The notes under the pieces were generated by a model. That model did no database searches, had not been told where the DNA came from, and saw only the letters and a program-made list of their open reading frames with translations. A DNA stretch of 64,000 nucleotides from a virus (lineage: Duplodnaviria; Caudoviricetes). Every line of letters begins with the position of its first letter. Positions within the stretch are counted from its first letter, which is position 1. The translations under genes and the position numbers were made by a program. The DNA is taken from the IMG/VR virus record IMGVR_UViG_3300029928_000001, positions 64,001 to 128,000 of that record; one strand, 5' to 3'. Below, one piece after another: positions 1 through 64,000 of the stretch.

Positions 1-774
1 CAAACAAACAATATTGAACGACGTATTCGAGAACATAAAAGTAATGCTTTTAATAGTAAAAGCGTAAATTATAATAATATTATTCATAAAGCTTTTAGAA
101 AATATGGATATGAAAATTTTTCAATTGATATATTAGAAACTTTAGAAAATGCTAGTCGAGAAGAAGTAAATGATAGAGAAATTTATTGGATAAAAGAAAA
201 GCATAGTTTAATTTCAGAAAATGGATATAATGTATTAGAAGGTGGCCGAAATGGATACCAAAAATCTTTACTAAATAAAGAACAAATTACTGACATTAAA
301 CGAATGATCAAAGAAAAAACTCCATATGATGATATTTGTAAAAAATATAGTGTTTCTAAAACTTTTATTTCAGATATTAACAATGGAAGATTTTTTTATG
401 ATGAGCAAGAAATTTATCCATTATGTTCATATAGATTAGACAAGGATTTATATGATTTATTAATTGAAGATTTATAGAAACCTATTTTAACCTTTTCCCA
501 ATTAGCTGATAAATATTCAATAGCACAATCTACTGTTAAAAAATTTAACTATGGAACTTTACGTCATGGAGAATTTTACAAAGGAGAATATCCTATTAGA
601 AAAATTACTCCACAAGATTATAAGGCTGAATTGATTATTGATTATTTATTAAATACTGATTATACAAAAAAAGAAATAATTCAATTGGTTGGAACTTCTG
701 ATGAAACAATAAGAAAAATTAATTTAGGAATTAGACATCATCATGAAGATTTAACTTATCCATTAAGATAGTAA
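1..774 (+). CDS. GIY-YIG-family homing endonuclease, 5' truncated, encoded inside the dnaE group I intron
   Basis: Frame 1 reads QTNNIERRIREH...IHKAFRKYGYENF...E.YWI....NGYN..GG, the region following the GIY-YIG motif, then HTH-like repeats. In-frame TAG at 475-477 and 769-771; TAA at 772-774. Not in the ORF track. Confidence 0.85.
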
Positions 775-939
775 GTTTGTAGAGACTATCCCGGGTTAGA
801 CTGGGAGTAGGGCTACTATTGATACGTAGCTAGGTTTTAGGAAACGAAGCCTATGAAAACCGAAACGGTATGATTATTTATTTTAAAACAAATAATTAAA
901 AGATAGTCCAATTCTAATAGAAATATTAGAGAAAAATTG
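1..939 (+). ncRNA. Group I intron (3' part) interrupting dnaE
   Basis: P7 elements TGTAGAGACTA (~778-788) and AAGATAGTCC (~900-909), then a P9 hairpin and terminal G939. The exon resumes (T)AT GCT TTT TCA AAA AAT CAT = YAFSKNH, the DnaE 'YAFNKSH' motif. Confidence 0.85.
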
Positions 940-2384
940 ATGCTTTTTCAAAAAATCATTCACTTCCGTATTCTTTCGTCGGTGTCCAAACGATCGTTTT
1001 AGCCACACAATTTAATCCTATCTATTGGAATACAGCTTGTTTAATTGTCAATAGCGGTTCATTAGAAAATAATGAACAGCTTGAAGAAGTGGATATATTT
1101 GAAGGTGAAGATGATATAGCTGATGGTGTTATTTATATAGATGCGCCAGATGGACAAACTAAATTAAGAAAAGTTTCTACAGACTATGGTAAAGTGGCAA
1201 AAGCTTTAGGTGATGTAATTAATGCAGGTATTAAAGTTAGTTTAGTTGATATTAATAAATCTAGTTTTGGTTTTAAACCCGATGTAGAAAATAATCAAAT
1301 TATGTTTGGCTTAAAAGGTTTATTAAATGTAAGTGATGAAATTATTGCTGATATTATTAAAAATAGACCTTATAAATCTCCAAAAGATTTTTTAAGAAAA
1401 GTAAAGCCAAAAAAACAATCTATGATTTCTTTAATTAAGAGTGGAGCTTTTGACTCAATGATGGAGCGTAGGGCTTGTATGGTTTGGTATATTTGGGAAA
1501 CTTGTGATAAGAAAAGTAATTTAAACTTACAAAATATGGCAAGTTTAATTAAGTTTAATCTTTTACCAGAACAAACTGAAGAACAAACAATGGCTCGTCG
1601 TGTTTATGAATTTAATAGATATCTAAAAGCTTGTTGTAAAATTAATGGAACAACTAATTATATTATGAACGAGCGTACTATTGATTTTCTTGCTGAATTA
1701 GATAAGGTTAATTTAATACAAGAGGATAATACATTAAATGCTAAAATATGGGATAAGGTTTATCAAAAATGGATGGATGTATTCAGAATATGGATTAGCG
1801 AAAATAAACAACAGATTTTAGATAATTTAAACACTTTAATTTTTGAACAAGATTGGGAGAAGTATGGCGATGAAGGAAATATATCTCGCTGGGAGATGAA
1901 AACTATGTGTTTCTATTATCATGATCATGAGTTAAAAAATCTTCAAGAAAATTATTATGGAATAAAAGATTTCTTTAAACTTTCTTCAGAGCCAATAGTA
2001 GAAAAGACTTTTGAGCGTGGTGGAAAAACTATTCCATTATATAAACTTGATAAAATAGCAGGAACTTGTATTTCTAAAAATAAAAGTAAAGCAACTGTTA
2101 CTTTATTAACCACTACTGGTGTTGTAAATGTTAAATTTAGAAAAGAATATTTTTCTTTATTTGATAAACGTATTTCAGAAAAACAGCCAGATGGAACAAA
2201 AAAAGTTAAAGAAAATAGTTGGTTTAATCGTGGAGAAATGATTATTGTTAATGGCATGCGCTCTGGTGATGATTTTATTGTGAAAAAATATGCAAGTACA
2301 GTTGGACATCAATTAATGAAAATTACAAGTATTGATAATGAAGGTCGAATTACTGTAACGAGTGAAAGATATGAGGTACAATAA
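940..2384 (+). CDS. dnaE: DNA polymerase III alpha subunit, 3' exon
   Basis: AFSKNHSLPYSF...NPIYWNTACL, DINKS...IMFGLKGL, LIKSGAFD and a C-terminal OB-fold-like region. In frame with track ORF 1089..2384. Confidence 0.9.
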
Positions 2385-2740
2385 TGAAAATGATAATTGT
2401 AATGCGTAAAGATTTAGGAATGCGCAAAGGTAAAATGTGTGCGCAAGCTGGTCATGCGGTTCTTGGGGCAATGACTACTGCGCTTGATATGTTTGAAAAA
2501 GAAAAATATGCTAATTGGTATAAAAATAACTTACAAACTAAAATTTGTTTAGGAGTAGATTCTGAACAAGAGCTTTTAGATATTTATGAAGCAGGATTAG
2601 AACAAGGTTATATTGTTTATTTAGTAGAAGACTACGGTTTAACTGAATTCCATCAGCAACATACATATACTTGTCTTGCTTTTGAACCATTAGAAGATGA
2701 ACAAATTGACACAATTACAGGAGGGCTTTCTCTTTTATGA
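2384..2740 (+). CDS. pth2: Peptidyl-tRNA hydrolase, Pth2 type
   Basis: IVMRKDLGMRKGKMCAQAGHA, D.GLTE and IDTITG.L.LL motifs. Confidence 0.9.
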   Translation: MKMIIVMRKDLGMRKGKMCAQAGHAVLGAMTTALDMFEKEKYANWYKNNLQTKICLGVDSEQELLDIYEAGLEQGYIVYLVEDYGLTEFHQQHTYTCLAFEPLEDEQIDTITGGLSLL

Positions 2741-3285
2741 GTTATAAAATTATTGCGCTAATCGGTAAAAGTGGCGCAGGCAAAGACCGCATGCTTAAAG
2801 AATTGATTAAATCAAATAAAAATTTCCATGAAATTATTAGTTGCACTTCTCGCCCTTCTAGAGAGAACGAAATTGATGGTGTAAATTATCATTTTCTTTC
2901 TAACGATGAATTTGCTAATGAATTATTAGAAGATGCTTTTATGGAAGCTACTGTTTTCAATAATTGGGCTTATGGAACACGGTTCCAAGACTTAGACGAA
3001 GAAAAAATTAATATTGGAGTGTTTAATCCCGATGGCATTTATAATTTATTAGAACATAAAAATATTGATTTAAAAGTATATTATATTACTGTTTCTGATA
3101 AAGAACGACTAATAAGGCAATTAAAAAGAGAAAAAGAACCAAATATTGAAGAAATTATACGACGCTATGGAACTGATAAAATAGATTTTTTAGATTTAGA
3201 CTTCGATTATGTGGAACTAACAAATGAGACGCCTCAAGAATTTTTTGTTGCCATTGACCGCATACTCGAGGACAGTTTTAATTAA
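2737..3285 (+). CDS. gmk: Guanylate kinase-like protein
   Basis: P-loop GKSGAGKD, TSRPSRENEIDGVNYHF, YGT. Confidence 0.88.
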   Translation: MSYKIIALIGKSGAGKDRMLKELIKSNKNFHEIISCTSRPSRENEIDGVNYHFLSNDEFANELLEDAFMEATVFNNWAYGTRFQDLDEEKINIGVFNPDGIYNLLEHKNIDLKVYYITVSDKERLIRQLKREKEPNIEEIIRRYGTDKIDFLDLDFDYVELTNETPQEFFVAIDRILEDSFN

Positions 3286-3313
3286 TTTAGTATAAAGATT
3301 TTTCATATATATA
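3270..3313 (+). promoter_or_regulatory. Tripartite phage promoter-like motif upstream of nrdD
   Basis: GGACA-N7-TTAA-N18-CATATAT; the same spacing recurs at six other gene starts. Confidence 0.6.
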
Positions 3314-3347
3314 TGTTAATACCCAAAATATAGAATGGAGGAAATTT

Positions 3348-4572
3348 ATGCTATATATACAGAAACGAGATAATACTTTAGAACCTTTTAATAAAGATAA
3401 AATTATCACAGCAATAAATAAAGCTTTTTTAGAAGTAGATAAAGTATTATATGAAACGGATACAGCAAATGATATTGCTGATGAAATAGAACAATATTAT
3501 TTAGATAATCCAAAAGAAGAATTAACAGTAGAAGGAATACAAGATTTAATCGAAGACGCTCTTATGCGCTCAGAGCGAAAAGATGTAGCGCGCGCATATA
3601 TTCGTTTTAGATATAAGAAAGAATTGGTTAGACAATCTAATACAACTGACCAATCTATTAAAGAGTTACTTGAAGGTGATAGTGACTATTGGAATAATGA
3701 AAATTCTAATAAAAACGCCAAAAGAACAACAGTTCAGAGAGATTATATGGCTGGCATTGTTAGTACAGATATAACTCGAAGATTTTTATTAGATGCTGAT
3801 ATAGTAAAAGCACACGACGAAGGGATTATTCATTTTCATGATGCTGATTATTTTGCGCAAAATGCTTTACATAATTGTGAACTTATTAATCTTGAAGATA
3901 TGCTTCAAAATGGAACTGTTGTTAATGGAGTTATGATTGAAAAACCACATCGTCTTTTAACAGCTACAACTATTGCGACTCAAATAATTGCGGCAGTTAC
4001 CTCATCTTCTTATGGCGGCGCTACTATCTCTTTAACTCATCTCGCTCCCTTTGTAAGAGAAAGTAAGAAAAGGTATATAGAGAAATATAAAAAGAGAGGC
4101 CTTTCTAAACAAGATTATGAACAATATGCTATGGAAGATACTTTAAAAGAAATTTCTGACTCTGTTCAAACCTTTAATTATCAAACTAATTCAATGACTA
4201 ATACAAATGGACAAGCACCTTTTTTATCAGTTTATATGTATTTAGGTGAAACGAAAGAGTATAAAGAAGAATTAGCATTATTAATTGAAGAATTTTTAAA
4301 ACAAAGAATTCAAGGCTTTAAAAATGAAAAAGGAGTTTATATCACTCCTGCTTTTCCTAAATTACTTTATGTTCTTGAAAAAGACAATATCCATAAAGAT
4401 ACTAAATATTGGTATTTAACTGAATTGGCAGCTAAATGTACAGCAAAACGTATGGTTCCAGATTATATTTCTGAAAAAGTAATGCTTAAGCTGAAGGGTG
4501 ATGTATACCCATGTATGGGGTGTAGAAGTTTCTTAACCCCTGATCCAGAGAACCATAAGTATTATGGACGCT
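3348..4572 (+). CDS. nrdD: Anaerobic ribonucleotide reductase, exon 1 (includes ATP cone)
   Basis: ATP cone IQKRD...FNKDKI, AHDEGIIHFHD, HNC, GQAPF, FPKL, CMGCRSFL. The exon ends at ...YYGR-T. Confidence 0.93.
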
Positions 4573-4899
4573 TAATTACACCTAAAATTAGGGCGTCATT
4601 AAACGAAGTGAACGCGTGATAAAGCGGTGTGAAATTAAAATAAAAATTTTGCTAACGGTGAACTCCCTATGGGACAATACCGTGCCAAGCCTAATAAATA
4701 TCTTATTAGGAAGGTGTAACGACTATGGGTGATGAATGTAACCCAGTAGGATGGATTTTATCACCATCCGAAGCGCTTCGCTATTAATTTTGGACTAATC
4801 GTTTTAACCAATGAAAAAGAATAGCAACAAGAAGTTCAAAAGTTCTTAAAATTAATAGAAGAGATAGTCTAAATTATATAGTAATATATAAAACAATTG
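4573..4899 (+). ncRNA. Group I intron 1 of nrdD (327 nt, no intact ORF)
   Basis: P1 pairs GACGCU with GGCGUC, giving a U:G at the splice site. P7 is AACGACTA / GATAGTC. Terminal G4899. Splicing restores GR-F-NQGVV. Confidence 0.9.
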
Positions 4900-5501
4900 T
4901 TAACCAAGGTGTAGTGACAATTTCATTGGCTGATGTAGCTTTTTCTTCAAAAGGTGATTTTGATAAATTTTGGAAATTATTTGATGAGCGTCTTGAGTTA
5001 TGTCATAGAGCACTTCAAGCACGACATGAACGTTTAAGCCATGCTAATGCTGATGTATCACCAATACTTTGGAGATATGGAGCTTTAGCTCGTTTACCGC
5101 AAGGAGCTAGTATTCATGAATTATTACATAACAATTATTCAACTTTATCTCTTGGATATGCTGCTTTATATGAATGTGTAAAATATATGACTGGAGAAAG
5201 TCATACTAAAGGCGGAAAAGAATTTGGCTTAGCAGTGATGAAAAAGTTAAATGACAAATGTGCTGAATGGCGAGAAGCTGAAAATATTAGTTATAGTGTT
5301 TATGGTTCTCCTATTGAAAGCACTACTTATAAATTTGCTAAATGTCTAAAAAATAGATTTGGTAAAGATATATTTATTGAACTTGATGGAAAGGATCGAG
5401 ACTACATAACCAATAGTTACCACGTACCTGTATTTGAAGAAATAGATGCTTTTACTAAGTTAGAATTTGAAGCAGAATTTCAAGAATTAAGTCCAGGTGG
5501 T
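4900..5501 (+). CDS. nrdD: NrdD exon 2
   Basis: FNQGVVTISL...SLGYAALYE...YGSPIESTTYKF...YITNSYHV...LSPGG. Confidence 0.92.
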
Positions 5502-6497
5502 TAAATTTCAATATAACTTAAAATAGCCACCTTGAAACTGTGTGAACGTAAGAAAAAACGGTGTTTAGATTTATATAAGTCTAAGCTAACGGGGGACACT
5601 TAATTGGAAATCCCGTGCCAAGCTTTATTATTTTATTTAATAAAGAAGGTGTACAGACTAATTGTACTGGTGATTTTATCACATCAGGAAGCGCACAGCT
5701 AATGAAGCGGAGGTATCCCGCTATTAGAAGATATAGTCGAAAGGAAAAAATATGTATAATTGTGAAATTTGTGGAAGAACAGTAAATAAAAAAATCCGTT
5801 TAGGCGGATATACTTTATGCTCTAAGCATATGCATCAGTTACATTCTCATGGAAAATTCTTAGATAATTGTCCTAGAACCCAAAATGATTTAAATGAATA
5901 TAGAATAGAACAGGACATTGCTTATGGCGGGTTATATGATGGTGTTACCTCAGAGAAAATTGATGAATTTATAATTGACTCTGAAGATTTACCAAAAGTG
6001 AAATATCATAAATGGAGATTTAGCCATGGACATATAGTAACCGGCTTACCCGCACAAAAAACCCAGCGAGAATTGAGTTGGGTTATTTTGGGGCTTGATA
6101 ATCGTGTTGAAAAAGACATTGTCATAGACCATATAAATTGTAACCCTAAAGACAATCGCAAGCAAAATTTAAGAATTTGCAAACAAAGTGAAAACGTTCA
6201 AAATAAATCCTTCATGAGTAATAATACCTCTAATTTTATCGGAGTATCATACCGAAAAGATAGAAATAGATACGATCCTGAAATTAGAAAAAATTCTATT
6301 CGTTGCCATTTAGGATATACTAAAACGCTCGAAGAGGCGGTTTATAAAAGATATTATGCGGAGCAACTTGTTTTCGGAGAGTTTGCAAATCAAGCTGAAC
6401 AAAATAAAAAACAAAAATTTACTGAAAATCTTCCAATAGAAACTAAAGAACGATTACAGGCTATTGTTAAAGAAAAATTACAAGCAAAAAACCTTTG
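5502..6497 (+). ncRNA. Group I intron 2 of nrdD, carrying an HNH endonuclease ORF
   Basis: P1 pairs AGGUGGU with GCCACCU. Core is homologous to intron 1 (GCTAACGG..., CCGTGCCAAGC, GAAGGTGTA.AGACTA, GATATAGTC). Terminal G6497. Splicing gives SPGG|AISYIE. Confidence 0.9.
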
Positions 6498-6504
6498 GCA
6501 ATAA
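5752..6504 (+). CDS. HNH homing endonuclease with C-terminal AP2-like domain
   Basis: IDHINCNPKDNRKQNLR, NNTSNFIGV, HLGY...EEA; N-terminal CxxC zinc motif; RBS GAAAGGAA. Confidence 0.9.
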   Translation: MYNCEICGRTVNKKIRLGGYTLCSKHMHQLHSHGKFLDNCPRTQNDLNEYRIEQDIAYGGLYDGVTSEKIDEFIIDSEDLPKVKYHKWRFSHGHIVTGLPAQKTQRELSWVILGLDNRVEKDIVIDHINCNPKDNRKQNLRICKQSENVQNKSFMSNNTSNFIGVSYRKDRNRYDPEIRKNSIRCHLGYTKTLEEAVYKRYYAEQLVFGEFANQAEQNKKQKFTENLPIETKERLQAIVKEKLQAKNLWQ

Positions 6505-6800
6505 GTTATATAGAAACTTCTAATTTACAAGGAAATATTGAAGCAGTCGAAACAGTAATACAATTTATTTATGAGCATATTATGTATGCTGAATTAAATA
6601 CTAAATCTGATTATTGTCAAGAGTGTGGTTATGACGGTGAAATTTTAATAGATGAAAATGTTGAATGGTATTGTCCTAATTGCGGAAATTGCAATCATGA
6701 AACATTAAATGTGGCTAGACGAACGTGTGGCTACATTGGTTCTCAGTTCTGGAATCACGGAAGAACGGAGGAAATTCGAGACAGAATAGTTCATTTATGA
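6498..6800 (+). CDS. nrdD: NrdD exon 3 (zinc site and glycyl-radical loop)
   Basis: CQECG, CPNCG, RRTCGYIG. Confidence 0.93.
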   Translation, partial: AISYIETSNLQGNIEAVETVIQFIYEHIMYAELNTKSDYCQECGYDGEILIDENVEWYCPNCGNCNHETLNVARRTCGYIGSQFWNHGRTEEIRDRIVHL

Positions 6801-7279
6801 GATACGCAGATTTAAAAATAAACGATACAGCTAATGGACCTGGAGTAAATGTTTCATTCTGGGTCCAAGGTTGTCCTCATCATTGTAAAAATTGTTTTAA
6901 TCCAGAAACTTGGAATTATAAAGCAGGAAAAGAATTTACAGCAGAAACATTAGAACAAATCAAACAAGCTATTTCTGCTAATGGTATTCAACGTAATTTA
7001 TCAATTCTTGGCGGTGAACCTCTTTGTGCAGAAAATTTATTTCTAACTGAGTTAGTAATTCGAGAAATAAAAAAAGATTTCCCACATATAAAAATTTATG
7101 TATGGACTGGATATATTTATGAAGAATTATTAAATAATAGCAATAAATCCTTAAAATATATTTTATCTACTATAGACACTTTAGTAGATGGTCCATATAT
7201 AGAATCACAAAGAGATATTACGCTTCCTATGCGCGGCTCGCGCAACCAAAGAATTATTGACTTAAAACAAAAAATATGA
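6797..7279 (+). CDS. nrdG: Anaerobic RNR activase (radical SAM)
   Basis: ATG overlaps the nrdD TGA. ANGPG, GCPHHCKNCFN, LGGEP, LVDGPY, RGSRNQR. Confidence 0.93.
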   Translation: MRYADLKINDTANGPGVNVSFWVQGCPHHCKNCFNPETWNYKAGKEFTAETLEQIKQAISANGIQRNLSILGGEPLCAENLFLTELVIREIKKDFPHIKIYVWTGYIYEELLNNSNKSLKYILSTIDTLVDGPYIESQRDITLPMRGSRNQRIIDLKQKI

Positions 7280-7285
7280 TATAAT
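7257..7285 (+). promoter_or_regulatory. SigmaA-type promoter
   Basis: TTGACT-17 bp-TATAAT with extended TG. Confidence 0.8.
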
Positions 7286-7308
7286 AAAATAAAAAAGGAA
7301 AGTGTCAA

Positions 7309-7683
7309 ATGAGTGAATTAAGTTTATATGAATTAAATAAAAATATTATGGAAAACGTTCCTAAGGAAGCAATTCCAACAGAAAAGCAATTAATAGAAGC
7401 AATTAATAAATATGATAATCACTCTAATTATTACATGCTTTTAAGCAATCAAATTAAATATTATACTGTTTTTGAACGAGTAGTTGAACATGGACCATTA
7501 AAAATAGATTGTTTAAATAATTTTGCACAAGAGGTAATTTTATGTTTACAAGATATGGGTGAAATTGTTGGTGTATCTGAAGAACCAGGAGCATTAGAAT
7601 TTTGGGTGAAAACAGAGAATGGTCCTGAGTGTTTTTATTTGTTTGATTATTCTCAAGGAATTGTTTATTTTAAAGGAGAATAA
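7309..7683 (+). CDS. Hypothetical phage protein
   Basis: RBS AAGGAAAG, 124 aa, tightly packed operon. Confidence 0.75.
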   Translation: MSELSLYELNKNIMENVPKEAIPTEKQLIEAINKYDNHSNYYMLLSNQIKYYTVFERVVEHGPLKIDCLNNFAQEVILCLQDMGEIVGVSEEPGALEFWVKTENGPECFYLFDYSQGIVYFKGE

Positions 7684-7686
7684 GAT

Positions 7687-7947
7687 ATGATTACTTGCGC
7701 AATTGATATGTTTGGCTTTGATCAAATAATTTATTATACAGATCAGTCAGGCGAAAAACATAAAATTAAAACAAATATGGATAATTTAGGAATTGATATT
7801 GCAAATGCTTGCCAAATTTATAATTGTTATACAGTTAAAATCTATGGTTCAAAAGCTTATGCAGATAAAAAAGTAATTCCGCAAATTTATAAATGCTTAG
7901 AAAATAATTATGATTTAAATAAAATAGATATTGAGGTGATTTTATAA
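7687..7947 (+). CDS. Hypothetical phage protein
   Basis: RBS AGGAG, 86 aa. Confidence 0.7.
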   Translation: MITCAIDMFGFDQIIYYTDQSGEKHKIKTNMDNLGIDIANACQIYNCYTVKIYGSKAYADKKVIPQIYKCLENNYDLNKIDIEVIL

Positions 7948-7948
7948 T

Positions 7949-8215
7949 ATGGCTAAATATTTAGTAAGTGTAGTAGAGACTTATAGAGTAGATAGTGAAG
8001 AAGAAGCAGTAAGATTAATCGAAGAAGCAAAACATAATAATAAATATGAATTAACAAAATATACTAATGAACACAAGGAAGTAAAGCAAAAAGGTGAAGT
8101 AGTTGATGAGTATCAAAAAGTAGCGTTAACAAAAATTGTTAATGACATCAAAGATCCTTACGTAGAAACTCAAATTGAATACTATAAACCAGGAGATAGA
8201 GAGGGAACATTTTAA
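7949..8215 (+). CDS. Hypothetical phage protein
   Basis: RBS GAGGTG, 88 aa. Confidence 0.75.
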   Translation: MAKYLVSVVETYRVDSEEEAVRLIEEAKHNNKYELTKYTNEHKEVKQKGEVVDEYQKVALTKIVNDIKDPYVETQIEYYKPGDREGTF

Positions 8216-8787
8216 TGGCAAAATTTGAAGTAATTGAAAAGTATAAAGACCAAAATATTAATTTGCCGGTGCGCGCCACTGCGCACGCCGCAGGTTATGA
8301 CTTTGAGGCTGCCGAAGATATTGTTATTCCTTCTTACTTTACTCTATGTAGTATAATGAATAATTATGGAACTAACTATGGAGATATTTTTTCAACGTTA
8401 ACCGGAGAGACAGGAACAGTACCAAAATATTTAGATGAAATGGCAGAATTAACTAAAGCATTACGTACTAAGCCTACTCTTATTCCTACTGGTATTAAAT
8501 GCCAACTTGCCGATGATGAATATTTAGAGCTTGTTGCAAGAAGCTCTATGCCGCTAAAGCATTGGCTTGTACTTGCTAATGGAGAAGGAATTGTGGATTC
8601 TGATTATTATAATAATCCAGATAATGAAGGTCATATTATGTTTCAATATATTAATTTTTCTCCTATGGATATTATTATTAAAAAAGGAGAGCGTATAGGG
8701 CAAGGGATCATCCGAAAATATTATATCACCGAAAATGATGCCCCAGGAGGCGAAAGAACTGGAGGTTTTGGATCCAGTGGCAAATAA
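8215..8787 (+). CDS. dut: Trimeric dUTPase
   Basis: AAGYDF, PTG, RSS, GIVDSDY, RIGQG and RTGGFGSSG (motifs 1-5). Confidence 0.93.
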   Translation: MAKFEVIEKYKDQNINLPVRATAHAAGYDFEAAEDIVIPSYFTLCSIMNNYGTNYGDIFSTLTGETGTVPKYLDEMAELTKALRTKPTLIPTGIKCQLADDEYLELVARSSMPLKHWLVLANGEGIVDSDYYNNPDNEGHIMFQYINFSPMDIIIKKGERIGQGIIRKYYITENDAPGGERTGGFGSSGK

Positions 8788-53400: not shown

Positions 53401-56400
53401 CTTGCGGTATCATCAAGCTCATCATCAACTCTATGATAGCGCTTTGTCTTACGATCAACTTTGTCAGTTTTAGATTTTGAGCCACCACTGCTACCAGTTG
53501 TGCCACCTTTATTTTTAGATGAATCATTATTTGTTAAGCCATTCGGTTTTTCAGAAATAGTCTATATTTGTGGACGGGTATTATCTCCTTTTTTATTCAT
53601 ATTAAAACCCCATGTGGTTACTACATCATTAATTATAGTTTTTTCTGTAGGCTCTGTATAAGTTTCTTCCGTCCATCCATCAGATGAACCATATTCACCT
53701 TGAACAATTTCATGACGAGTTCGTGTCCCTGTATATGTCTAAGTAGTTGGCTAATCTGCAGAAACATACGTAGCAGAATACTTCATAGCATCCATAATAG
53801 AATCTATCTATGCTTCAGTGAGACCGGCTGCTATAATCATTTTATTTAATGAAGCAATAAATTCTTCTTCATTTACATCAATCGTACAATCTTTAGAAAA
53901 ATCCCAAGCATCTAATTTTTCTTTTAAAGTGTTAAATCCTGTCTATAATTCTTCTGTTAATTCTGGATCTTCTAAATTAGTAGTAATATTAACTAAAATA
54001 TCTTCATAAGCAGCATCACGCAAAGCTTCAATAGCTTTTTCATCACCTTTAGCTGCTTTTTCTAATAACTCCAAATTTTGAGCATTCTTTTTGGCATCAA
54101 AAAAATCAGCAGAAATTGCTGTAGTATCAGTAATATCTAGCACATCACTCAAAGCTTCTCGTAGCCCTTGTAATGCACTATAATATTCTTCTGATTCTTT
54201 GGAACTTTTCTTTAATATATCAATCCAATTTTCACTATTTTTAGATAAAGTTTCAACACCTTTATTCATACGATAAAGTGCAACAGCATAATCATTTGCA
54301 ACTTTTTGATTGTCTGCTAAATTATCTGCAAACTCTGTACTTTCATCAGCAATTTCTTGAATATACTCTGCATAACCAGCCAATTCATCACTTTCAAAAT
54401 CATAAGTTTCTGCGGCACTAGTTAAAAAATCTTGCCCAGCTTCAGTTGCCGCTTCGCGCAATTGTTCTTTAAAATCATCTAAATTAGTAACTTCAGATAA
54501 ATTTGGCATCTCATTTAAAGCCTATTTTTCTAATTCTCCGATAGAACCTAAATAAGACATTGTATCATTTTGATCACTTACATAATTTTTAGAGTCAAAC
54601 AAATCACCAACTTTTTTAGCTTGTGATACAGATAGTTCATGTGCAATTTCTTGAGACTTTTGAGTTAATTCATCAAAAGAACCATAAACATCTTTAATCC
54701 ATTTTTTCGCATTTTCTTGTAACTATTTTAATGAAGCAGTTCCATCCTTGCCATATAATTTTTCATAAGCCTCTCTATATGCTTGACGTAAATCGTTTGC
54801 TTCGTCAGATTCATCATTTAATAATTCTAATTCTTGATAATTCAAATCACTAACTGTACTATCTAAAGACCCTAAAGCTTTGATTATTATATCACCTGAC
54901 TCTTGACGAAGATCTTCAAAAACATCTACTATAGCCTTAACGGCTTCTCCAATGTCTTCATCTGCACTAGTTAATGTTGATGCTACAGTCTCCCATTTTA
55001 TTGTTTGACCTTCATCAGAACCATCATCATAAGTTAATCCATTATCATCTGTACTTTTTAATTTAGATTCTTCAATGCCTAATAAATTTAAATAATCTTT
55101 TGCCGATTCTTCTTGATTAGCCTAAACTTCTTTTAACGTTTTTTTATAATTTTCACCAATAGTATAAGTTTCTTGCAAAATTGCTTTAACCTATTCTGCA
55201 TAATCATATTCATCTAATCCAGTAACTCGAAAAGAAGCAAGCGCAGAAATTTCAGCTTTTGTCTAAGTTTCATACTACTCAACTTTTGCTAAATAAGCAG
55301 CAAACTATTTTTTTTCATCTGCCGTTGGCTCAAGGTCATCTCCAGTAACTAATACAGATGCTGGCAATTCTGAACGCATTTTATCTAATTCAGCCTAACG
55401 CTCATTAATATTGCCAATTAAACTAGCCTACTAAGCCTAATAGACCTATTGATTCGCTTTTGCCTATAAATAATCCTAAATGTTATCTTGCGATAACTAT
55501 TCTACTAAATCTTTTGTTGAATCAATCATTGAAGCAATTTCTGGATATTTTTCTAATATTTCCAAAGCAGATGAATTTGCTTCATTTAAAGCTTCTTGCC
55601 ATTCTTTAGTACCTGCAGTACATGCATCAATACGTTCTACAATTGAATTAAAATTTTCAAAAGTATTCTAAATATCGTTAGCAACAGATTTTGTTTCTTC
55701 TAAAGTAGAATTAAGTTCTTCTGCTGATTCTTGTGCCGCTTGTAATTTTCCTTCTGGAGTTGTTGCCTCCCAAGCATCAAATGCTTTTTTTACTAAAACA
55801 ACAATTCCTACAAGAGCGCTAATACCTGCAGCTACTACACCTAATCCAATTAATAATGGAGTCATAGAAGCCAATAATCCAGCATTGGCAGCAGTTTGAG
55901 CAACAGTTAAATTAATACCTACAATTTTTGCAGCATTTTCTCCCAATAAAGCAACTTTAGACAATCCACGAATAACTAAATTACTTTCCTCAATTGTCTA
56001 ACCTGCTTTAATTGCAGCGTTATAAGTAAGCGCTCCAGTAGCAGCAATTTTTAAAGTTGAAGCAAGCGTACTTATGCCCGTAATCACTTGTGGTAAAGCG
56101 ATTGGCGCAACTGTTAAAAAAGTCATAAATTTTTCGCCCAAGGTTGCATCTTCGCTAGCCAATGTCTAAAACATACTAATTAAAGAACTTATTCCAAAAA
56201 TTATTGAAGAAAGGGCAGTGCTTAATTGCATAATGGTCTAGCCAGTTGTCCCTAAACTATTATTCGCCTATTCTAATGTTTCTAGTATATGTTCTTCAAT
56301 TTGTTTTTGTTTATCTGCCGCCTAATTAACATTTTCTTGTAAATTTCGCTATTGCTGTAATTTTGCAACAATAGCATCATAAACTTGCCCTATTTGACGT

Positions 56401-58658
56401 TCATTCCAATCAATACCTTCATTATTTGCGTATTGCATTGTTTCATTAATTACAGCTGAACGAGCGCTACGATCAATTAATCCACTTTGGGCTTCAAAAA
56501 AATCTGCTTGAAATGCCGCACTTCGATTTCTTTTCCCAGAAGCTCTTAATCTATTATATACAGAATCACCAAGAGTGTTAGATCCATATCTATCACCAAT
56601 ATCAATTAATGCTTGATTTAATTCTTGATTATTTTGATTGCCACTATCTCGATATGCCTTAACGGCAGCCATAATTTCTTCTTTTGCTTTTTGGCTATTT
56701 TTAATCCTATCTTCAATATTTGAAGATGCCATTCTAACCATTCTATCTTCTTCAGTAGTTGTGTTAAAAGTATGGCTATCATAAGCGTGACCCATTAAAT
56801 TTAAAGACGCATCTTCAGCATTTATTTTACTTAAATCAACCTACTTCTATAATTCAATAGTTTGATCTTGCAAAACTTTTAATACTTCTACTTCACTAGC
56901 AAGCTCTTTACTTTTTGACGCGCCAATGATATCAGATATTTCTGCAATTTTTTGCTATAATTGCACCCTAGTCGCCATGTCTTCTGCCATTTGCTAATCA
57001 GTTAAATCAGCCTATGGATTATTAGCAATTATATTAGCTTCTTCAACTGCTTTTTGCTATAATTCTAACGCCTATTTTTTTAATGTACCGTCAGCTAATT
57101 GAATACGATAAACTAATTCATCAACAGATGCACTAATCTAACTGCCAAAGACTTTAAACATTAAAGTAGCTACTAATGGTAATACTGATTTTAAACCACC
57201 TATACGTTCAATAAAAGCATCTAAGCCAGATAATAAATCTGCTAGACTATTATTTAGCTAAATAAAAAAATCATCGTCTAAAAGATCATTATATATGTCT
57301 TCAGCAGCCGCACGTACTCGCTTACGAGCTGCTTCCCAAGATTCAGCATAGATTTCAGCTTGTTCTTCTAAAGTACCATCAGCATTATAAGCAGTCTCTA
57401 AATTTTGTTTCATAAAATCCCAATTATCAAATAATGCCATAAATTGAGAATATTGACGAACACCAGCTACAACTTGAGCTAATGCTACTTTTTGATCATC
57501 AGCAAGTGTCGACCAAGTAGATCCGATATCATTTAAAATATCGTCCATATCTCTTAAATTGCCTTCAGTGTCTTTAATCTATACGCCTACTTTAGCAAGA
57601 CCTTTAGAATATTTATTTAAATCTGTGCCGTCATCTAAAGTATCACCTTGCTGTAATCCTTGAATACGTGAAAATATAGTTTTTAATGCCGTACCAACTA
57701 CATCTTCAGATTGACGTGTTCTATCTACAATGGTTGTAATAGCAGAAGTTGCATATTCAAATGATAAACCAATAGTATCAGCAACCGCTGCAAACTTTTC
57801 AAGACCACCTGCAATTTCTTCAGTGCTTGCCGCTGTACCTGCTCCCAATTTAGTCATTACATCGCCAAAATGTTCAGCTGCTTGGGTGCCATCTTTATTA
57901 AAGTTATTCCAAACAGCAGTCATATAAGAAGATACATCATCAACAGCTTCGCCCGTTACGTTTGCCATTTTAATCGTAGCATTTGTACGTTCTTCTACTT
58001 CACTATCAGACAAACCCTGTTGATAGAAAATTAAAGCAGCATCAGCATATTTTTTTGTAGTTGTACTAAGAGCTTGCGCAGCTTGGTTTGCTCGGTCTGC
58101 AAATTTATCCATTTCCTCAGCACTTAAACCACTAACTATTCTAATATCATTTAATGACTTATTTAATCCTTGAGCATAAGAATAAGCGCTTTGAATCGCT
58201 GATTGAACTCCGTGTATAGCGCTTGATGCAATTTGCCATCTTGCTGTATTTTTTAATGTTGTGGCAAACTCATCTAATAAACTTTGCGTCTATTTAATTG
58301 GAATTTCTGCTTGCATAATAGATTGCGCTAATTGTCCAAATGCTTGTACTCCTGTTGGACCTAACTTTTCTAACTATTGTCTATAATAAGTTAAATCTTT
58401 TGCTCCAGACGATAAAGATTTACTAAATTTTGATAAATCTAAATTACCAGTGTTTACATTTGTAGCTTGTTCTAAAACAGTTTTTAGCTAACTAGCTGCA
58501 TTTTTAGCCTAAATTAAATCATCAGATAACTAAGTAGCGCCCTTAATATTAGTACCAGTTGATAATTGTTCTAACATTTGCTATAAACTTTGTATCTAAC
58601 TTTTCGCTTGGGAAGTATTTGCTGTAAAAGCTAAATTTACATTTAACTATTTTGCCAT
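50466..58658 (-). CDS. Tape measure protein, 2730 aa, TAG-rich
   Basis: LNKSLNDIRIV, ALIFYQQGL, GTALKTIFSRI, VAGVRQYSQFMAL, FASGGYTGEW...AMLH[Q]KELVLN. Seven track fragments share one frame. ATG with RBS AAGGAG. Confidence 0.9.
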
Positions 58659-58694
58659 ACTATCTCCTTTCTCTCACAATATTTTTTACTTTGC

Positions 58695-58741
58695 AAAATA
58701 AAAAATAAGGAGAAAGAGTATTGTTACTCTTTCTCCTTATA
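58695..58741 (-). terminator. Terminator hairpin upstream of the tape measure gene
   Basis: ATAAGGAGAAAGAGTA-acaa-TACTCTTTCTCCTTAT followed by a T run. Confidence 0.78.
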
Positions 58742-58774
58742 CTCTCGATATATTTCAAAATTTTATTAAATCAA

Positions 58775-59287
58775 TTATCCCATTTTGGTTAATATATTTT
58801 TTAATAAAGTTAAATTTTCTGGGTTAGCAATTGTATTTTGAAGATTTTCTACATCCAAACTAAGATTACTATAATCAGAACTTATCCCATCTAAAATTCC
58901 ATAAACCGAATTCTTATACTCATAAATACTTCTAATCAATTCACTCACATATCCATGTACTTCTTGATATGCCTTAATTGGTACAATTTGATAAATTTCG
59001 CTTACTTTTAAAACATCATAAACTTTAAAAATATTCTCCATTTGTTTTTCAGTAATAGAAATATTCGTATAAGCAAAAAATGTTTTTACAGTTAAAAATA
59101 CATTAATCCTCATTGGATTATAATATCCATTTTCATCGACAGAAGAATTTACTATATCTTGCACTAATTCAATTAATTCTTCTATTGGTAAATATTCTTT
59201 AACTTCAATAATATTTCCTTTCCATTCTCTTTCAATTGGTTCAGACTTTTCTTGAAGTTTTAATTTTCCATACGCAACTTTTGCCAT
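58775..59287 (-). CDS. Hypothetical protein, possibly a tail assembly chaperone (TAG-free)
   Basis: Lies immediately upstream of the tape measure gene; IEVKEYLP, AYTNI; RBS AGGAGG. Confidence 0.7.
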   Translation of the reverse strand: MAKVAYGKLKLQEKSEPIEREWKGNIIEVKEYLPIEELIELVQDIVNSSVDENGYYNPMRINVFLTVKTFFAYTNISITEKQMENIFKVYDVLKVSEIYQIVPIKAYQEVHGYVSELIRSIYEYKNSVYGILDGISSDYSNLSLDVENLQNTIANPENLTLLKNILTKMG

Positions 59288-59315
59288 TTAATTAGCCTCC
59301 TTTTTCTCTATTTAG

Positions 59316-59344
59316 AGTTTAACAAAAAATTTTATAATTGTCAA
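59316..59344 (-). promoter_or_regulatory. SigmaA-type promoter inside the structural region
   Basis: TTGACA-17 bp-TAAACT with extended TG. Confidence 0.65.
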
Positions 59345-60363
59345 ATTTTAAGATTTTCTAACAAATTATTAATAACATTATCAATATGTTGATTAATTTG
59401 ATCTGTTGTATTTTCATCACCATTTAAAAATAATTCCTATATTTTTTCTTGAGCCTATTTAACATCAGTACTTTGTTGTATCTTTCTAAAAAAAGATTCT
59501 AATTCTTCTAAATAATTAATCAAAGTAGTAGCAGACATTAAATTTGCTGAATTTGTTTTTATCTAATTTAGTCCTACGTCTCCACCTTTAAAACCTTTTA
59601 CATTATCATATTTTAACTAATTTAAAAAGTATTCTCTCTAAAATTCTTCTGAAGAAATTGAATTTAACTAAGTGCCATATTTATTTATTGTTGCATCAAA
59701 AGCCTAATAAATCCATCCACGATTAAATAATTTAAAACTATAGGCACTTCGTCCTCTTTTTCCATTTCCTTCGTTAGGCTACCAAGCGTAAGCTCGTTCT
59801 TTTTTGCCATATTTAGATTCTATTTCTTTGTTAATAATATAATTAGTTTTTGAACGACCAGGATGACGAAATTTATTAATTACATCAAAGTGCTTCTTAA
59901 ATGCGTCTTCAGCTTTTGTATCATGTTTTAATTTATTTAATTTTTCTTTTGAAAGTACTCCAGGTAAACGTAAAGTTGTTTTGTCACGATAAACTAAATT
60001 CATTAATTCGCTTTCTGTTAAAGTATATATTTTTACTTCATTTAATTCACCGCTACGATAATAAATTTTATACTAAATTTCCTAATCTTTACCTAAAAAA
60101 TATGTTCTAACAGCCATAATTAATTCATAAGATTTTTTTAATTCCTCTTCTAATTTTTTATCAATAATAGCATTTTTATTTTTCGTCCTTTTATTAATAG
60201 AATAAGTATTAACGCAATATTCTAAAGTTTTCTTCTATAAAGCTAAAAGTTTTATTTTATTCTCGACAGTCGCATTAGCCCATTTTATTGTATCAAAAAC
60301 TACATTATTAGCTACTAAATCATATATTTCCTTTTTATCAGACTAATCTATATATTGCTCCAT
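59341..60363 (-). CDS. Hypothetical protein, 340 aa, TAG-rich
   Basis: ATG 60363 with RBS AGGTG, open to TGA 59341-59343 under code 15; GFKGGDV motif. Confidence 0.65.
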
Positions 60364-60378
60364 AGCTATCACCTATAA

Positions 60379-60410
60379 TAAAAATAAGGGGAGTTCACAA
60401 ACTCCCCTAT
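60379..60410 (-). terminator. Terminator after the major tail gene
   Basis: AGGGGAGTT-tgtg-AACTCCCCT followed by a T-rich tract. Confidence 0.75.
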
Positions 60411-60417
60411 AAAGTTA

Positions 60418-61356
60418 TCACTTAAACAAATTAGCCTATTCTGCTTCGAACTGTGCTTCGTAAGTTCCGTAATTGTGATAAGTACCAAGTCTTTCTACAT
60501 CAGCAGTACCTGCTACGTCAACGATTTGAATAGCAGCTAATACTTTCTTAGTCTTATCAAATCTTGTATAATCTGGGAATGCATCCATAGTAAATGTAAA
60601 TGTACTTGGATCTCCAGAAGAAGCAAGAGTAAAGTTAAAGTTAGATTGAATCTTACAGTTTGGAATAATAAATTCTGCCGGTAAATCTACACCATTTGTA
60701 TCTCTAAATAATGTAGAAGCTTCTAAGTAATAGTTTCCGCCAAACTTATCCGGAGTAATTTCAATCTGTTGAGCACCAGATTTTCTTTCTACGTAATAAT
60801 CTACAAGAACTACGCATCCTTCATAGAATACAGAAAGATCATCCGTAGATTTTAATGTAATAGTTTTTCCATCTTTAGTAGCTGGAATATACGGTTCGGT
60901 GACAGGTTCACCGTCAGTAGTTGCCATTACATAAATAAAATCTTCGCCTTCTTTGAAATAAGGTTCTTCGTCAAGAGTAATAGTAACACCAGTTACCTGG
61001 TCACCCACTGTTGCTACTTCAACAGCATCAGTTTGTTCAGTTGCATGAACTTTAATAGTTTTATTTTCAGAAGCTTCAATTAAACCAGCCCCAGAAAGAA
61101 TCATGAATCCAGCAGGAGAAATAAGCGCATCTTCCATCGTGAAAGTTACAGTTCTTTCACCTTCCCATGCTACGAGTCTTGCGTTACCACGTCCGCCTTG
61201 CGCGTATACCGTAGTAGCAGCGCCTTCCATACTGGAGGTCTTTAAAGTGTCAAAATAAATGACAGGTTCATTTTTATAGAAAATCTTATTGCCGACTTTT
61301 TGAGCTGCTTTTGCTTTTAAAACAACGTTGCAAATCTCACGTGCACCGAATTTCAT
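60418..61356 (-). CDS. Major tail (tube) protein
   Basis: YAQGGRGNARLVAWEGER, IIPNCKIQSNF.FTL...GDPSTFTFTMD; position in the tail operon. The only TAG is at 60436-60438, followed five codons later by TGA. Confidence 0.75.
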
Positions 61357-61375
61357 AATTTAGTGTCCTCCTTAA

Positions 61376-62098
61376 TCAATGAATATTTTTCATCCAATTA
61401 TCCGGTTTATCTTCTGGGCTACCGCCCGCTAACCGAACTCGAATATCAATATCCCAATTAACATATAATGAATATCTCTCTAATAAATCATAAACCTAAT
61501 ACACAGTAAGCTATTTACAATCATTAAGAGATAAATGTAATCCAATAGATAAAGTAGAAAGATACTAAGAAAAAACACTTCCTATAGTTCCACCTTTTTC
61601 TGCCGCAACTTTTTGGCGCCCTTGCATAATCTTATCCGCAATTGCCTTAGCCTAAGCATTTGCTGGATTAAAAGTTGTCTAATCCATTGAACTATTATTT
61701 ACACAAAAAATGGTTTTTATATTTTCTTGAAGAAATTCAAAACTATCTTCATCAACCATAATTGAATTTCCCTCAGAATTAAAAATGATTGATCTTGGAG
61801 AAAATATAATTTTATATTGTGGAAAAACCAACTGAAGTAATGAAAGGACTGCTTCTTTTTTATCAGCCGTCTCTTTCTCATTCATTATTGTCATAAATAT
61901 CTGAAAGTTTGTTATATCCAATAAATCATTTTCGCCCGAAGAAATCATATTTTTATTTACTGTTAAAGTCTGTAACGCAATAAAAAAATCTTTCTCTCCT
62001 ATTAATGCTATTTCTTTCATAGTAGGCTAATGCGCAATTAATTGACATTCTTCTATTGGAATATCAGTTCCGCACATTAAAGCTAATCGAATATCCAT
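61376..62098 (-). CDS. Conserved tail-region protein, 240 aa
   Basis: MDIRLALMCGTDIP...H[Q]PTMKEIALIGE...TVY[Q]VYDLLERY...RLAGG...NWM. Confidence 0.75.
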
Positions 62099-62712
62099 TA
62101 TAACAAATCTTCTAAGTCTATATTAGAATTATTAAAAATAGCGTCAAAGTTAGCGTCCATATCTTTTTGGTCTTTTGCATTAGGAGAATTTTTTTGATCA
62201 TCATCTGCGTGAACTGCAGAATACATTAATGTAATTCCTGCAAATTCATCATTAAGAATTATCTAAGAAGCACCTAAAAATTCAAGAGTTCCTATACCAC
62301 TTAAATGCTTATTATTAAATAAGGTATCGATCTCAGCGGCGATTTTATAAGGCCGCAACTAAAAATCTCCCAACTCCCATTGATCCATATGACAAATAAT
62401 ATCAAAACTAATAACATTATCCCTATAATATGGATTTGTCATATTAGGGGTAAAATTATCAAAAGATATAATAATATAATTTAAAACATCTTTATCTATA
62501 TATACTTTAGGAATCATTCTAATATAACGCTCAGAAACTAATTGTGCATCCTATTCTTTAGTAAGATTAGGTTTATTTAAACAATCTTTTGTAGTATAAT
62601 ACAATAATTTTTTTAATCTATTATTTTTTAGCATCATATCAATAATCATTCCCATGTCTTTTTCTATAGAAATAAAGCTTGACTTTGGATATTGATAAGT
62701 TAATTTATACAT
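62098..62712 (-). CDS. Putative neck/tail-completion protein, 204 aa
   Basis: RLKKLLYY, ISFDNF, FDIICH..QW....LRPYKIA, GIGTLEF. Absent from the standard-code track. Confidence 0.68.
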
Positions 62713-62731
62713 TCCTTTTTCTCCTCTATAT

Positions 62732-63841
62732 TTAGAATAATGACTCTACAACAATAGTTTTACTAATAGACTATTCTCCATTAGTAAATATTAAATCAAA
62801 CTATCCGCTAAAAGTATTATTCCATTTAATACGTATTTGCGGTTGCCCTTTATCATTTTTTGAGCACTTATAGACTACTGGTATTTTTTCATCTATCTTC
62901 CAGCTCCCATTTTCCATAGAACCAACAAATACGTAATTATAAACTTGTTTTGGTTGAATAAATCCCTCACCCTTGATTTCTTTACCAGATTCTTCAGGAC
63001 GTAAAAGTTTACCCGATGGTACTTTACCATCTACAAGTTCTTTTTCTACATCATCTTTATCTTGATTAATGTAATATTCAACCGCTGTAAATTCAATAAT
63101 ACCTTGCATGCTATATGTGTCTGTTGCCTCTATTCGCCAGCAAACAGTATTTTCACCATCAGATAATAAAAATTTATTATATCTTTTACACCATTGCAAA
63201 GTATCTTTATTTTTTGGAATTAACATATTTAAAGAATAATTTGGAACATCTAAACTTATTCCATTCTTTTGAATTGATTCAATTCTAGTTTCTACTGGAC
63301 CTCGAATTGCCGCATAAGTATAACGTTCTTCTCCATCATCATTTAACCAACGAATAATATAAGAACAACGTCTTATATCTCCTCTAAAATATGCTAATTC
63401 TGTTAAATCCTATAAATATATTAACCAATAGGTTCCAGTTTGGCACCATTCAAAAACAGTTCCTGGCTCAAAATTATATTCCCAACCTATTGAAATAACT
63501 TTATCATCATAATCTTGTTTAACTTTATTTGGATTAATAAGTGCCCGAGCTGGTGGCTAATCTTTTTCATTGTCCATCAATGGCACATAATCCTATATAT
63601 ATTTTTTAACGAAAGCCCCCTAATAAGAATATAAGACGGCTCTATCGAGTGTCCTACGCTTATCTTTTATCATTCTCGATTGCTGCGCGGGGCCGCCAGC
63701 TGCATACAGATGTTTTGCTAAAGCATTTACTCCTTGAACTGATGAAGGAGCAATTTTTGGTCTCTACAACTGTCCAGGTTGTATTCCCTAATCTTTTAAA
63801 AATTTATCCCAATAAAAACCACCAATCTCATGCAAGTCCAT
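62732..63841 (-). CDS. Putative head-tail connector/closure protein, 369 aa
   Basis: RBS AGGAGG. RALINPNK.KQDYDDK, WLIYL[Q]DLTELAYFRGDIRRC, IRGPVET. Confidence 0.7.
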
Positions 63842-64000
63842 TTTTAGCCTCCTAAATTAAACTAATACATTCAAAAACTGTTTTACGATAAATATCAAAA
63901 TTAGGTTTTACAATTAATATTCCTTCTAATTTAGACAACAGCTATAAATAAAGCGGGTTAGAAGAAAAAATTTCATTTAAACCCGCTATATCTATAATTA
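63828..64000 (-). CDS. 3' end of a hypothetical protein
   Basis: ...GLNEIF...LLSKLEG...YRKTVFECISL; TGA at 63828-63830. Confidence 0.6.

Follow-up and report, generated by a model that had tools for sequence, protein, structure and literature searches.

TAG-recoded phages of the gut have been described in the Lak, crAss-like, Jade, Sapphire, Agate, Garnet, Amethyst and Topaz clades, and RF2 was reported in the TAG-recoded Lak and Agate phages (Borges et al., bioRxiv 10.1101/2021.08.26.457843). Another recoded phage, phAss-1 (OQ749652), belongs to the proposed Phassvirus group (Babkin et al. 2023, PMC10607447; "Caudoviricetes code 15 clade" in NCBI); the three proposed Phassvirus members are 80-86% identical to one another (PMC10607447). 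Theta ribozymes are minimal HDV-like ribozymes located beside phage tRNAs (Kienbeck et al. 2024, PMC10879173), and about 90% of the published examples are found in phages of Bacteroidota (PMC10879173).

The window, a stretch of 64,000 nucleotides, is part of a 178-kb tailed phage genome from a gut-type metagenome, with a CheckV completeness of 100%. It very probably represents the late-gene half of a siphovirus-type phage in which UAG is translated as Gln (NCBI table 15), the host being presumed to use the standard code. Such TAG-to-Gln recoding is of a kind already known in phages and is well supported here. As in the clades of Borges et al., which were compared by description only, the recoding is concentrated in structural and late genes, the early genes can be read with the standard code, the phage has a suppressor tRNA(CUA) and RF2, codes are mixed within one clade, and the genome is of a size found in the large Jade, Sapphire and Agate phages. 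The present genome differs by an additional tmRNA and by the ribozyme that adjoins its suppressor tRNA.

The similarities to phAss-1 include a large siphovirus-type gut phage genome with a very long tape measure protein, TAG read as Gln in the TerL, portal, tape measure and tail fibre genes, a tRNA-Sup(CTA) with no aminoacyl-tRNA synthetase of the phage's own, and a distant kinship to Enterococcus phage EF1. However, the portal proteins have an amino-acid identity of only 41%, the genome of phAss-1 is shorter (136 kb), and phAss-1 has three suppressor tRNAs instead of one. A blastn search with the tRNA region detected no similarity to the tRNAs of phAss-1. Membership in the Phassvirus genus was rejected on these grounds, the portal identity and the missing blastn match. 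The lineage itself is not new, being distant kin of phAss-1 and of at least 280 related IMG/VR stretches.

Almost all of the tail and virion genes use TAG as a sense codon. The late block of these genes (9836..63841, minus strand), recognized by its ORF coverage and TAG counts, contains 34 code-15 ORFs, 30 of which carry in-frame TAG (217 TAGs in 17,149 codons). The initial annotation had noted that the ORFs of this region are fragmented under table 11 and had proposed that reading through TAG restores them. Between 9.8 and 64 kb, the minus strand was indeed found to have 63 ORFs of at least 60 aa under table 11, covering 55% of the region, and 32 ORFs covering 95%, the longest of about 2730 aa, when TAG is sense. 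The coverage of the late block thus rises from 0.55 to 0.95, compared with 0.56 when TGA, and 0.67 when TAA, is taken as sense instead. There is no in-frame TAA or TGA in any of the 34 ORFs, whereas the two off-frames contain 1702 TAA and 1238 TGA, and the probability that 2730 codons would lack both by chance is about 1e-106. The Shine-Dalgarno starts and abutting genes described previously were also confirmed: an AGGAGG-type motif is situated 5' of 19 of 29 starts, compared with 7% of internal in-frame ATGs, and the intergenic gaps are mostly between -50 and +140 bases. It had further been stated that no gene needs TAG as its stop. This holds in the window, where all 34 minus-strand ORFs end in TAA (26) or TGA (8), but probably not elsewhere in the genome, where one early gene has a TAG at the stop column of two paralogs in a relative.

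Two long proteins of the late block, predicted earlier from seven and eight fragments, respectively, are real. The tape measure protein (50466..58658, minus strand) is 2730 aa long, contains 64 in-frame TAGs and matches Pfam PhageMin_Tail with E = 1.3e-28. The tail or fibre-like protein (25916..33490, minus strand) has 2524 aa and 23 TAGs, and its C-terminal BspA-type LRR lies slightly under the Pfam cut-off. Two other minus-strand ORFs have no family match, namely that of a 1276-aa protein with 24 in-frame TAGs (46562..50392) and a 343-aa ORF with 12 TAGs (59341..60372), which at 3.5 per 100 aa is the densest in TAG among the larger ORFs of the window. The 312-aa virion structural protein (60418..61356, minus strand; phrog_2729) has a single TAG, five codons ahead of a TGA-TAA double stop. 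Family profiles that cross TAG positions include those of the portal protein, phrog_2739 (residues 40-522), and of phrog_4051 (residues 1-239), as well as PhageMin_Tail, RuvC, PhoH and Response_reg. No lysis genes were identified. An annotation with table 11 loses about 40% of the late region and cuts the large virion proteins into many pieces, and table 15 is needed for any annotation, host-range or protein-family study of this phage or of related ones.

Some plus-strand genes also use TAG as a sense codon, among them those of RuvC, a response regulator, PhoH and homing endonucleases. The RuvC-like resolvase (8789..9268, plus strand) has TAGs at 8804-8806 and 8846-8848, and the Pfam RuvC match extends across both. 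The motif ILALD-TAG-S is present as described (8789-8809, plus strand), but its use as a pointer to Gln had to be abandoned, as E. coli RuvC (PDB 1HJR) carries Pro at this first TAG column. In the LytTR-type response regulator (12708..13436, plus strand), the TAG at 12804-12806 is codon 33 and lies within the receiver domain and the Pfam Response_reg match (residues 4-115). The 3' part of a GIY-YIG homing endonuclease gene (1..774, plus strand) ends with TAG-TAA at 769-774; its TAG at 475-477 (TAG199) is probably read as sense, because HTH-like repeats go on past it. The early nucleotide-metabolism and replication genes (1089..8787, plus strand) have no in-frame TAG and stop only at TAA or TGA, and are therefore readable under both codes.

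Gln is the residue that best fits TAG, a statistical assignment that is supported by the homolog columns. Eighty-three TAG columns, the TAG being masked as X, were compared with 163 related IMG/VR loci. The residues at these columns are Q (0.33), E (0.12) and K (0.09), with W and Y at 0.4% each; the profile is the same at the phage's own CAA/CAG columns, with Q at 0.40, E at 0.12 and K at 0.11. The expectation of Gln at the homolog TAG columns was upheld, as Q ranks first by log-likelihood both in the IMG/VR relatives (Q -198.9, K -247.9, E -249.9, placing Q ahead of every other residue by about 49 units) and in cultured standard-code phages (Q -182.8, E -192.5). In the latter, five phages in all, 16 of 70 pairs (23%) have Q, compared with 21% at the phage's own Q columns and a background of 3.8%. 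The codons found opposite TAG in the relatives are CAA (876), TAG (468), GAA (289) and CAG (265); CAA is two changes away from TAG, and the Gln signal is therefore not due to mutational proximity. In the relatives, 31 of the 83 columns have a majority of E, K, N, A or G, a spread like that at the phage's own Gln columns. The glycine-rich tail protein (17562..19742, minus strand; 726 aa) contains an internal duplicated domain with repeats that are 35% identical, in which two of five TAG columns pair with Q. One pair is that observed in the initial annotation, with CAA 18762-18764 (residue 327, GTGTQYIDT) opposite TAG 18150-18152 (residue 531, SSGSqYINT). The second is reciprocal, with TAG 18588-18590 (residue 385) opposite Gln in the other copy.

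The decoding genes had been expected in the rest of the genome. Of these, a tRNA(CUA) and RF2 were found, and no GlnRS gene was found in the phage genome. The tRNA(CUA) gene (genome 9907-9978; Rfam tRNA, 44 bits) has features of the glutamine type: U1 and C72 form a mismatch, the discriminator is G73, and CCA is not encoded. Its best match in the closest complete relative, which has 21 tRNAs, is tRNA-Gln(UUG), with an identical 5' acceptor strand (7/7), although a broader nearest-neighbour comparison is ambiguous, the closest non-CUA tRNAs being one tRNA-Met and one tRNA-Trp. The tRNA resembles E. coli supE-type suppressors in its CUA anticodon on a tRNA-Gln-like body, U1, weak or absent 1:72 pair, G73 and U35. 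The supE-type tRNAs, which are tRNA-Gln with the anticodon CUA, are charged with Gln. They arose by host mutation, whereas the phage gene is a regular decoder of hundreds of codons. The RF2 gene (prfB) scores 398 bits against a TIGR00020 cut-off of 370, has the SPF and GGQ motifs and contains no TAG. RF2 reads UAA and UGA, not UAG. The genome also encodes a tmRNA, which, like RF2, tRNA(CUA) and the ribozyme next to that tRNA, is located outside the window.

Directly 3' of tRNA(CUA) is a minimal HDV-like ("theta"-type) ribozyme. It is predicted to cleave at G1 of P1, one base past the discriminator G73. Five distinct sequences of this ribozyme were found, each 3' of a tRNA without CCA, the copies in relatives having the same layout after tRNA-Thr, tRNA-Trp and tRNA-Arg. 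P1 retains 6-7 pairs and P2 6-8 pairs while their letters differ, and the cores CCTTC(T/A)CGTGG and GTTTTTACTAA are invariant. The compensatory changes in P1 and P2 indicate that the HDV-like pairing scheme (P1 with a G1-U wobble, P2, P3/L3 and a C in J4/2) is kept by covariation, and self-cleavage is predicted. A search of Rfam 15 gave no match to the ribozyme. Theta ribozymes are recognized by a cleavage site within 5 nt of the 3' terminus of a tRNA that lacks an encoded CCA. The present ribozyme shares with them this position of the predicted site, here at most one base from the tRNA, as well as an amber suppressor tRNA as partner, nested P1/P2/P3 with the G1-U wobble and the J4/2 C, and a recoded gut phage as carrier. 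The cultured relatives of the present phage infect Bacillota, whereas the published cases are mostly from Bacteroidota.

That the TAGs are sequencing or assembly artefacts, or belong to a decaying, pseudogenised phage, would explain the fragmented table-11 ORFs and nothing else, and its probability is vanishingly small. Decay does not agree with 217 in-frame TAGs against no in-frame TAA or TGA, nor with the completeness of the genome. In four separately assembled runs of one study, the tape-measure gene has 31 SNP sites, none of them within the 64 TAG codons, and no indels; in relatives that come from other samples, 468 TAGs occupy the same columns. Read errors, which had been considered initially, are therefore excluded as the origin of the TAGs. 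It is also very unlikely, although less so, that TAG is sense but stands for Glu, Lys, Trp, Ala, Tyr or pyrrolysine instead of Gln. E or K is frequent in relatives at TAG columns, but in the same shares as at the CAA/CAG columns of the phage; Q leads K and E by about 49 units in the relatives and E by about 10 in the cultured outgroups, W and Y are nearly absent, and tRNA(CUA), with U1 and G73, resembles tRNA-Gln in its acceptor stem. In Bacillota, Gln-tRNA is made via Glu-tRNA (GatCAB pathway). This route might let some Glu in, and the data leave room for some Glu insertion at TAG if the host uses GluRS and GatCAB.

Code 15 might instead apply uniformly, throughout the genome and at all times, without any temporal switch and with TAG never serving as a stop. 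Every ORF does reach a TAA or TGA, TAGs are clearly internal in plus-strand RuvC, PhoH, response regulator and homing endonuclease genes and in an rSAM cluster, and the GIY-YIG gene of the window continues past TAG199 into more HTH-like repeats. Against this, the share of TAG among the codons is 1.08% for minus-strand genes and 0.21% for plus-strand genes, at similar use of CAA+CAG, and most early plus-strand genes have none. The plus-strand TAGs concentrate in the first and last deciles of genes, with 9 in the last compared with 1 and 0 in the two preceding it. In an early gene (genome 152900-153298), a TAG is found at the column of the TAA/TGA stops of two paralogs in the relative G002. A tRNA(CUA) and RF2 of the phage's own would also be needless if the host itself used code 15. 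A uniform code is thus unlikely, but by no means negligible. The C-terminal clustering of TAG and the paralog stops at a TAG column suggest that a few early genes are probably still terminated by TAG.

A temporal switch from stop to Gln is a tentative but quite possible explanation. Early genes would be translated by the standard machinery of the host. The phage tRNA(CUA) would then be transcribed, its 3' end cut free by the ribozyme, and CCA and Gln added by host enzymes (GlnRS, or in Bacillota GluRS plus GatCAB). The phage RF2 would sustain termination at UAA and UGA without adding a release factor that reads UAG, so that, as proposed, suppression would win at UAG and the TAG-bearing late genes could be produced only afterwards. 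The TAG-ending early genes would in that case acquire short C-terminal extensions. The first gene of the late operon, divergent from RF2, encodes a sigma-factor-like protein and has two TAGs; as part of the same tentative scheme, it may be an amber-gated master switch of late transcription.

The recoding itself, its association with RF2 and the association of tRNAs with ribozymes have all been published, and nothing here is new in kind. The suppressor tRNA, the adjacent ribozyme, RF2 and tmRNA occur in one genome together with a clean early/late split, which makes this phage a useful test case for the proposed control of late genes by a code switch. The related IMG/VR stretches are a mixture of TAG-recoded and standard-compatible members, with one TGA=Trp (106, 53 without in-frame stops, and 1, respectively, among the related loci). 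Clade members with different codes have 55-80% protein identity and are therefore good material for studying the speed of phage code change.

With the standard code (table 11), the minus strand of the late block, between 9.8 and 64 kb, is split into a string of short ORFs. When TAG is read through, this strand carries 34 adjoining ORFs, ending in TAA (26) or TGA (8), in line with the abutting genes and TAA/TGA stops of the initial annotation. In-frame TAG is found in 30 of them (217 TAG in 17,149 codons). The ORFs contain no in-frame TAA or TGA; the two off-frames contain 2,940. The chance of a 2730-codon frame free of TAA and TGA is about 1e-106. An AGGAGG-type ribosome-binding motif lies upstream of 19 of 29 starts versus 7% of internal ATGs, in agreement with the Shine-Dalgarno starts reported earlier. 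On the minus strand of the late block, ORF coverage rises from 0.55 under table 11 to 0.95 when TAG is a sense codon, the controls giving 0.56 (TGA sense) and 0.67 (TAA sense). Greedy ORF coverage of the whole genome was rejected as a test. Reading TAG as sense raises it from 0.73 (code 11) to 0.90, but TAA sense alone already gives 0.87 in this AT-rich genome, so that the measure discriminates poorly and the strand-specific late block was used for the comparison instead.

The TAGs are not sequencing or assembly errors. The tape-measure gene is found in four separately assembled public runs of a single study, one of which is possibly the source sample. All 64 TAG codons of the gene are unchanged across the four runs, which differ at 31 SNP sites and show no indels. 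Furthermore, TAG is present at the same columns 468 times in relatives from other metagenomes.

The amino acid at TAG was assigned from homolog columns. All code-15 proteins were aligned to 163 loci of related IMG/VR contigs with TAG masked as X, which frees the alignments from bias toward any residue. The mean profile of the 83 TAG columns having at least five distinct homolog contexts (Q 0.33, E 0.12, K 0.09, N 0.06) is essentially that of the columns where the phage itself has CAA or CAG (Q 0.40, E 0.12, K 0.11). With substitution tables derived from these alignments themselves, Q has a log-likelihood of -198.9 at the TAG columns, against -247.9 for K and -249.9 for E. CAA, two changes away from TAG, is the codon most often found opposite it (876), showing that the glutamine signal is not due to the mutational neighbourhood; Trp and Tyr each make up 0.4% at these columns. 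Five cultured phages with the standard code, taken as an independent set, again rank Q first: it occurs in 16 of 70 pairs at TAG (23%), compared with 21% at the phage's own Q columns and a background of 3.8%. The reading of TAG as glutamine proposed in the initial annotation is thus well supported by the homologous sequences of both data sets.

The tail-fibre region is poorly conserved, and most TAG columns therefore come from 50-64 kb and from beyond the window. The search of related IMG/VR loci found none for the 680-aa protein (23585-25627) and only three for the 795-aa protein. In relatives, the C-terminal end of the 312-aa virion structural protein varies too much for its TAG to be classed as stop or sense by comparison. 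The positions first reported for the paralog pair and for the ILALD-TAG-S motif were confirmed exactly. Within the 726-aa protein, the duplicated domain does point to glutamine: of its five TAG columns, two form reciprocal TAG/Q pairs. The RuvC motif does not, as E. coli RuvC carries Pro at the TAG column. PhoH has Q at one of three TAG columns aligned with PDB entries, too few to weigh.

The decoding RNA genes are situated outside the window, in a cluster of tRNA genes at genome 7.5-10.2 kb. The cluster contains one tRNA with the anticodon CUA (9907-9978), the suppressor that the initial annotation had proposed to look for. It has a U1/C72 mismatch and G73, and its CCA is not encoded. Its nearest counterpart among the 21 tRNAs of G002, the closest complete relative genome, is tRNA-Gln(UUG), having an identical 5' acceptor strand. 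Nearest-neighbour typing among tRNAs of mixed loci is ambiguous, and a glutamine identity is therefore only likely. The phage's own tRNA(CUA) is a plain 72-nt form, whereas that of G002 (L270:11061-11151) is 91 nt long and has a long extra arm, the loop of which is anticodon-loop-like (CUCUGAA).

A 54-nt minimal HDV-like ("theta"-type) ribozyme is predicted on the plus strand from one base past the tRNA(CUA) discriminator (L002:9979-10032, genome coordinates). Its P1 is formed by GGAACTA/TAGTTCT and its P2 by GTCTAAA/TTTAGAC, with cores CCTTCTCGTGG and GTTTTTACTAA. Relatives contain four more distinct copies, located behind CCA-less tRNA-Thr, tRNA-Trp and tRNA-Arg genes (L174:1523-1577, L177:1487-1539, L179:1494-1546 and L180:1489-1541), and P1 and P2 are preserved across the copies by compensatory changes. 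The element matches the published "theta" ribozymes, one fifth of which adjoin amber suppressor tRNAs (PMC10879173). No Rfam 15 family matches it at E <= 0.1. A blastn search with the tRNA and ribozyme gave no match among GenBank phages, and in phage phAss-1 only insignificant matches were found.

The same cluster encodes a tmRNA (L002:9176-9465, plus strand; Rfam RF00023, 82 bits) with the tag AKNNYRPVLMAA; G002 likewise has a tmRNA, with the tag AKPYRLAA. ARAGORN calls no tRNA at L002:9600-9700 (plus strand), where there are tRNA-like pieces: a T-arm-like GGTGGTTCGAGCCCAC and, after it, a D-arm-like TAGCTCAGTTGGAAGAGC. ACAGCAA motifs are repeated between the tRNAs.

The release factor and glutaminyl-tRNA synthetase suggested as further candidates fared differently: a TAG-free gene for full-length RF2, with the SPF and GGQ motifs, is present, and the genome encodes no class-Ic (GlnRS/GluRS-type) synthetase. 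The RF2 gene (L006:17646-18698, plus strand) is divergent from the first late-operon gene (L006:16388-17437, minus strand). The latter carries TAG at codons 9 and 77, and its product, which resembles sigma factors (phrog_5767, E = 4e-47), may be an amber-gated late regulator.

The phage record has 178,419 bp, 31% G+C and a CheckV completeness of 100%, the window being bases 64001-128000. The window includes the 2730-aa tape measure protein (Pfam PhageMin_Tail) and tail and virion structural proteins matching PHROGs; the portal (phrog_2739, E = 1e-84) lies just outside. No lysis cassette was identified with Pfam or PHROGs. In tblastn the best portal match is a phage fragment from human faeces that lacks annotation (55%), followed by phAss-1 (41%); the large Bacillota siphoviruses Enterococcus EF1/VRE9, Lactococcus P1048, Bacillus FADO and C. 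difficile phiCD211 match at 26-29%.

In IMG/VR, 224 stretches encode a related portal and at least 280 are related to the 312-aa protein, on contigs mostly of 120-200 kb. The 160 loci with enough aligned codons, some contigs being counted as two loci, comprise 106 with in-frame TAG, 53 without in-frame stops and one with in-frame TGA. This last (L038, IMGVR_UViG_3300028048_000052, 175 kb) has 21 in-frame TGA and no TAG in the aligned structural genes. Thirteen of the 21 lie opposite the window phage's Trp, and L038 is a clade member that reads TGA as Trp. Borges et al. (bioRxiv 10.1101/2021.08.26.457843) have described clades of mixed codes, as well as suppressor tRNAs and the presence of RF2 in phages recoded at TAG. 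phAss-1, too distant from the present phage for a shared genus, belongs with its relatives to an already described group of large siphoviruses of the gut that use code 15 (PMC10607447), and the NCBI taxonomy contains a "Caudoviricetes code 15 clade". The recoding is thus a known phenomenon, of which one more member was found here.

Inference of the host from RF2 was abandoned: apart from one 74% match, none exceeds 55%, and they follow no taxonomic pattern. The 74% match lies on a 4.2-kb contig of an Absicoccus sp. MAG (L187, CAVJCN010000207.1), which is either a mis-binned piece of phage or gives a weak hint of an Erysipelotrichaceae host.

TAG makes up 0.21% of codons in plus-strand genes versus 1.08% in minus-strand genes, with similar use of CAA and CAG. 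The plus-strand genes clearly needing TAG as sense are those of RuvC, the LytTR response regulator, PhoH, the GIY-YIG endonucleases and the rSAM cluster. In the remainder, the TAGs are concentrated at the extreme ends of the longest-ORF models. In two small paralogous early genes on the plus strand (L007:6900-7298 and L007:6507-6881), TAG precedes the next TAA or TGA by 13 and 3 codons, respectively. In the former (genome 152900-153298) the TAG column coincides with a TAA/TGA stop in two G002 paralogs, and TAG probably acts as a stop there; its neighbour behaves similarly at TAG. Judging by the TAGs at gene ends and these paralog stops, a few early genes, all outside the window, probably still end at TAG. 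The initial statement that no gene here needs TAG as a stop holds for the window. This layout fits the switch model that Borges et al. put forward (bioRxiv 10.1101/2021.08.26.457843).

The LytTR-type response regulator gene (window 12708-13436, plus strand), with a receiver domain and a weak LytTR match, is antisense within the late block. No RNA data with the phage are listed among public runs. Homing endonuclease genes, five of the GIY-YIG and two of the LAGLIDADG type, are dispersed over the genome (window 1-774, plus strand; L002:17057-17995; L003:6186-7079; L004:101-1087; L006:13320-14111, 2417-3445 and 10424-11287) and contain TAG even beside TAG-free neighbours.
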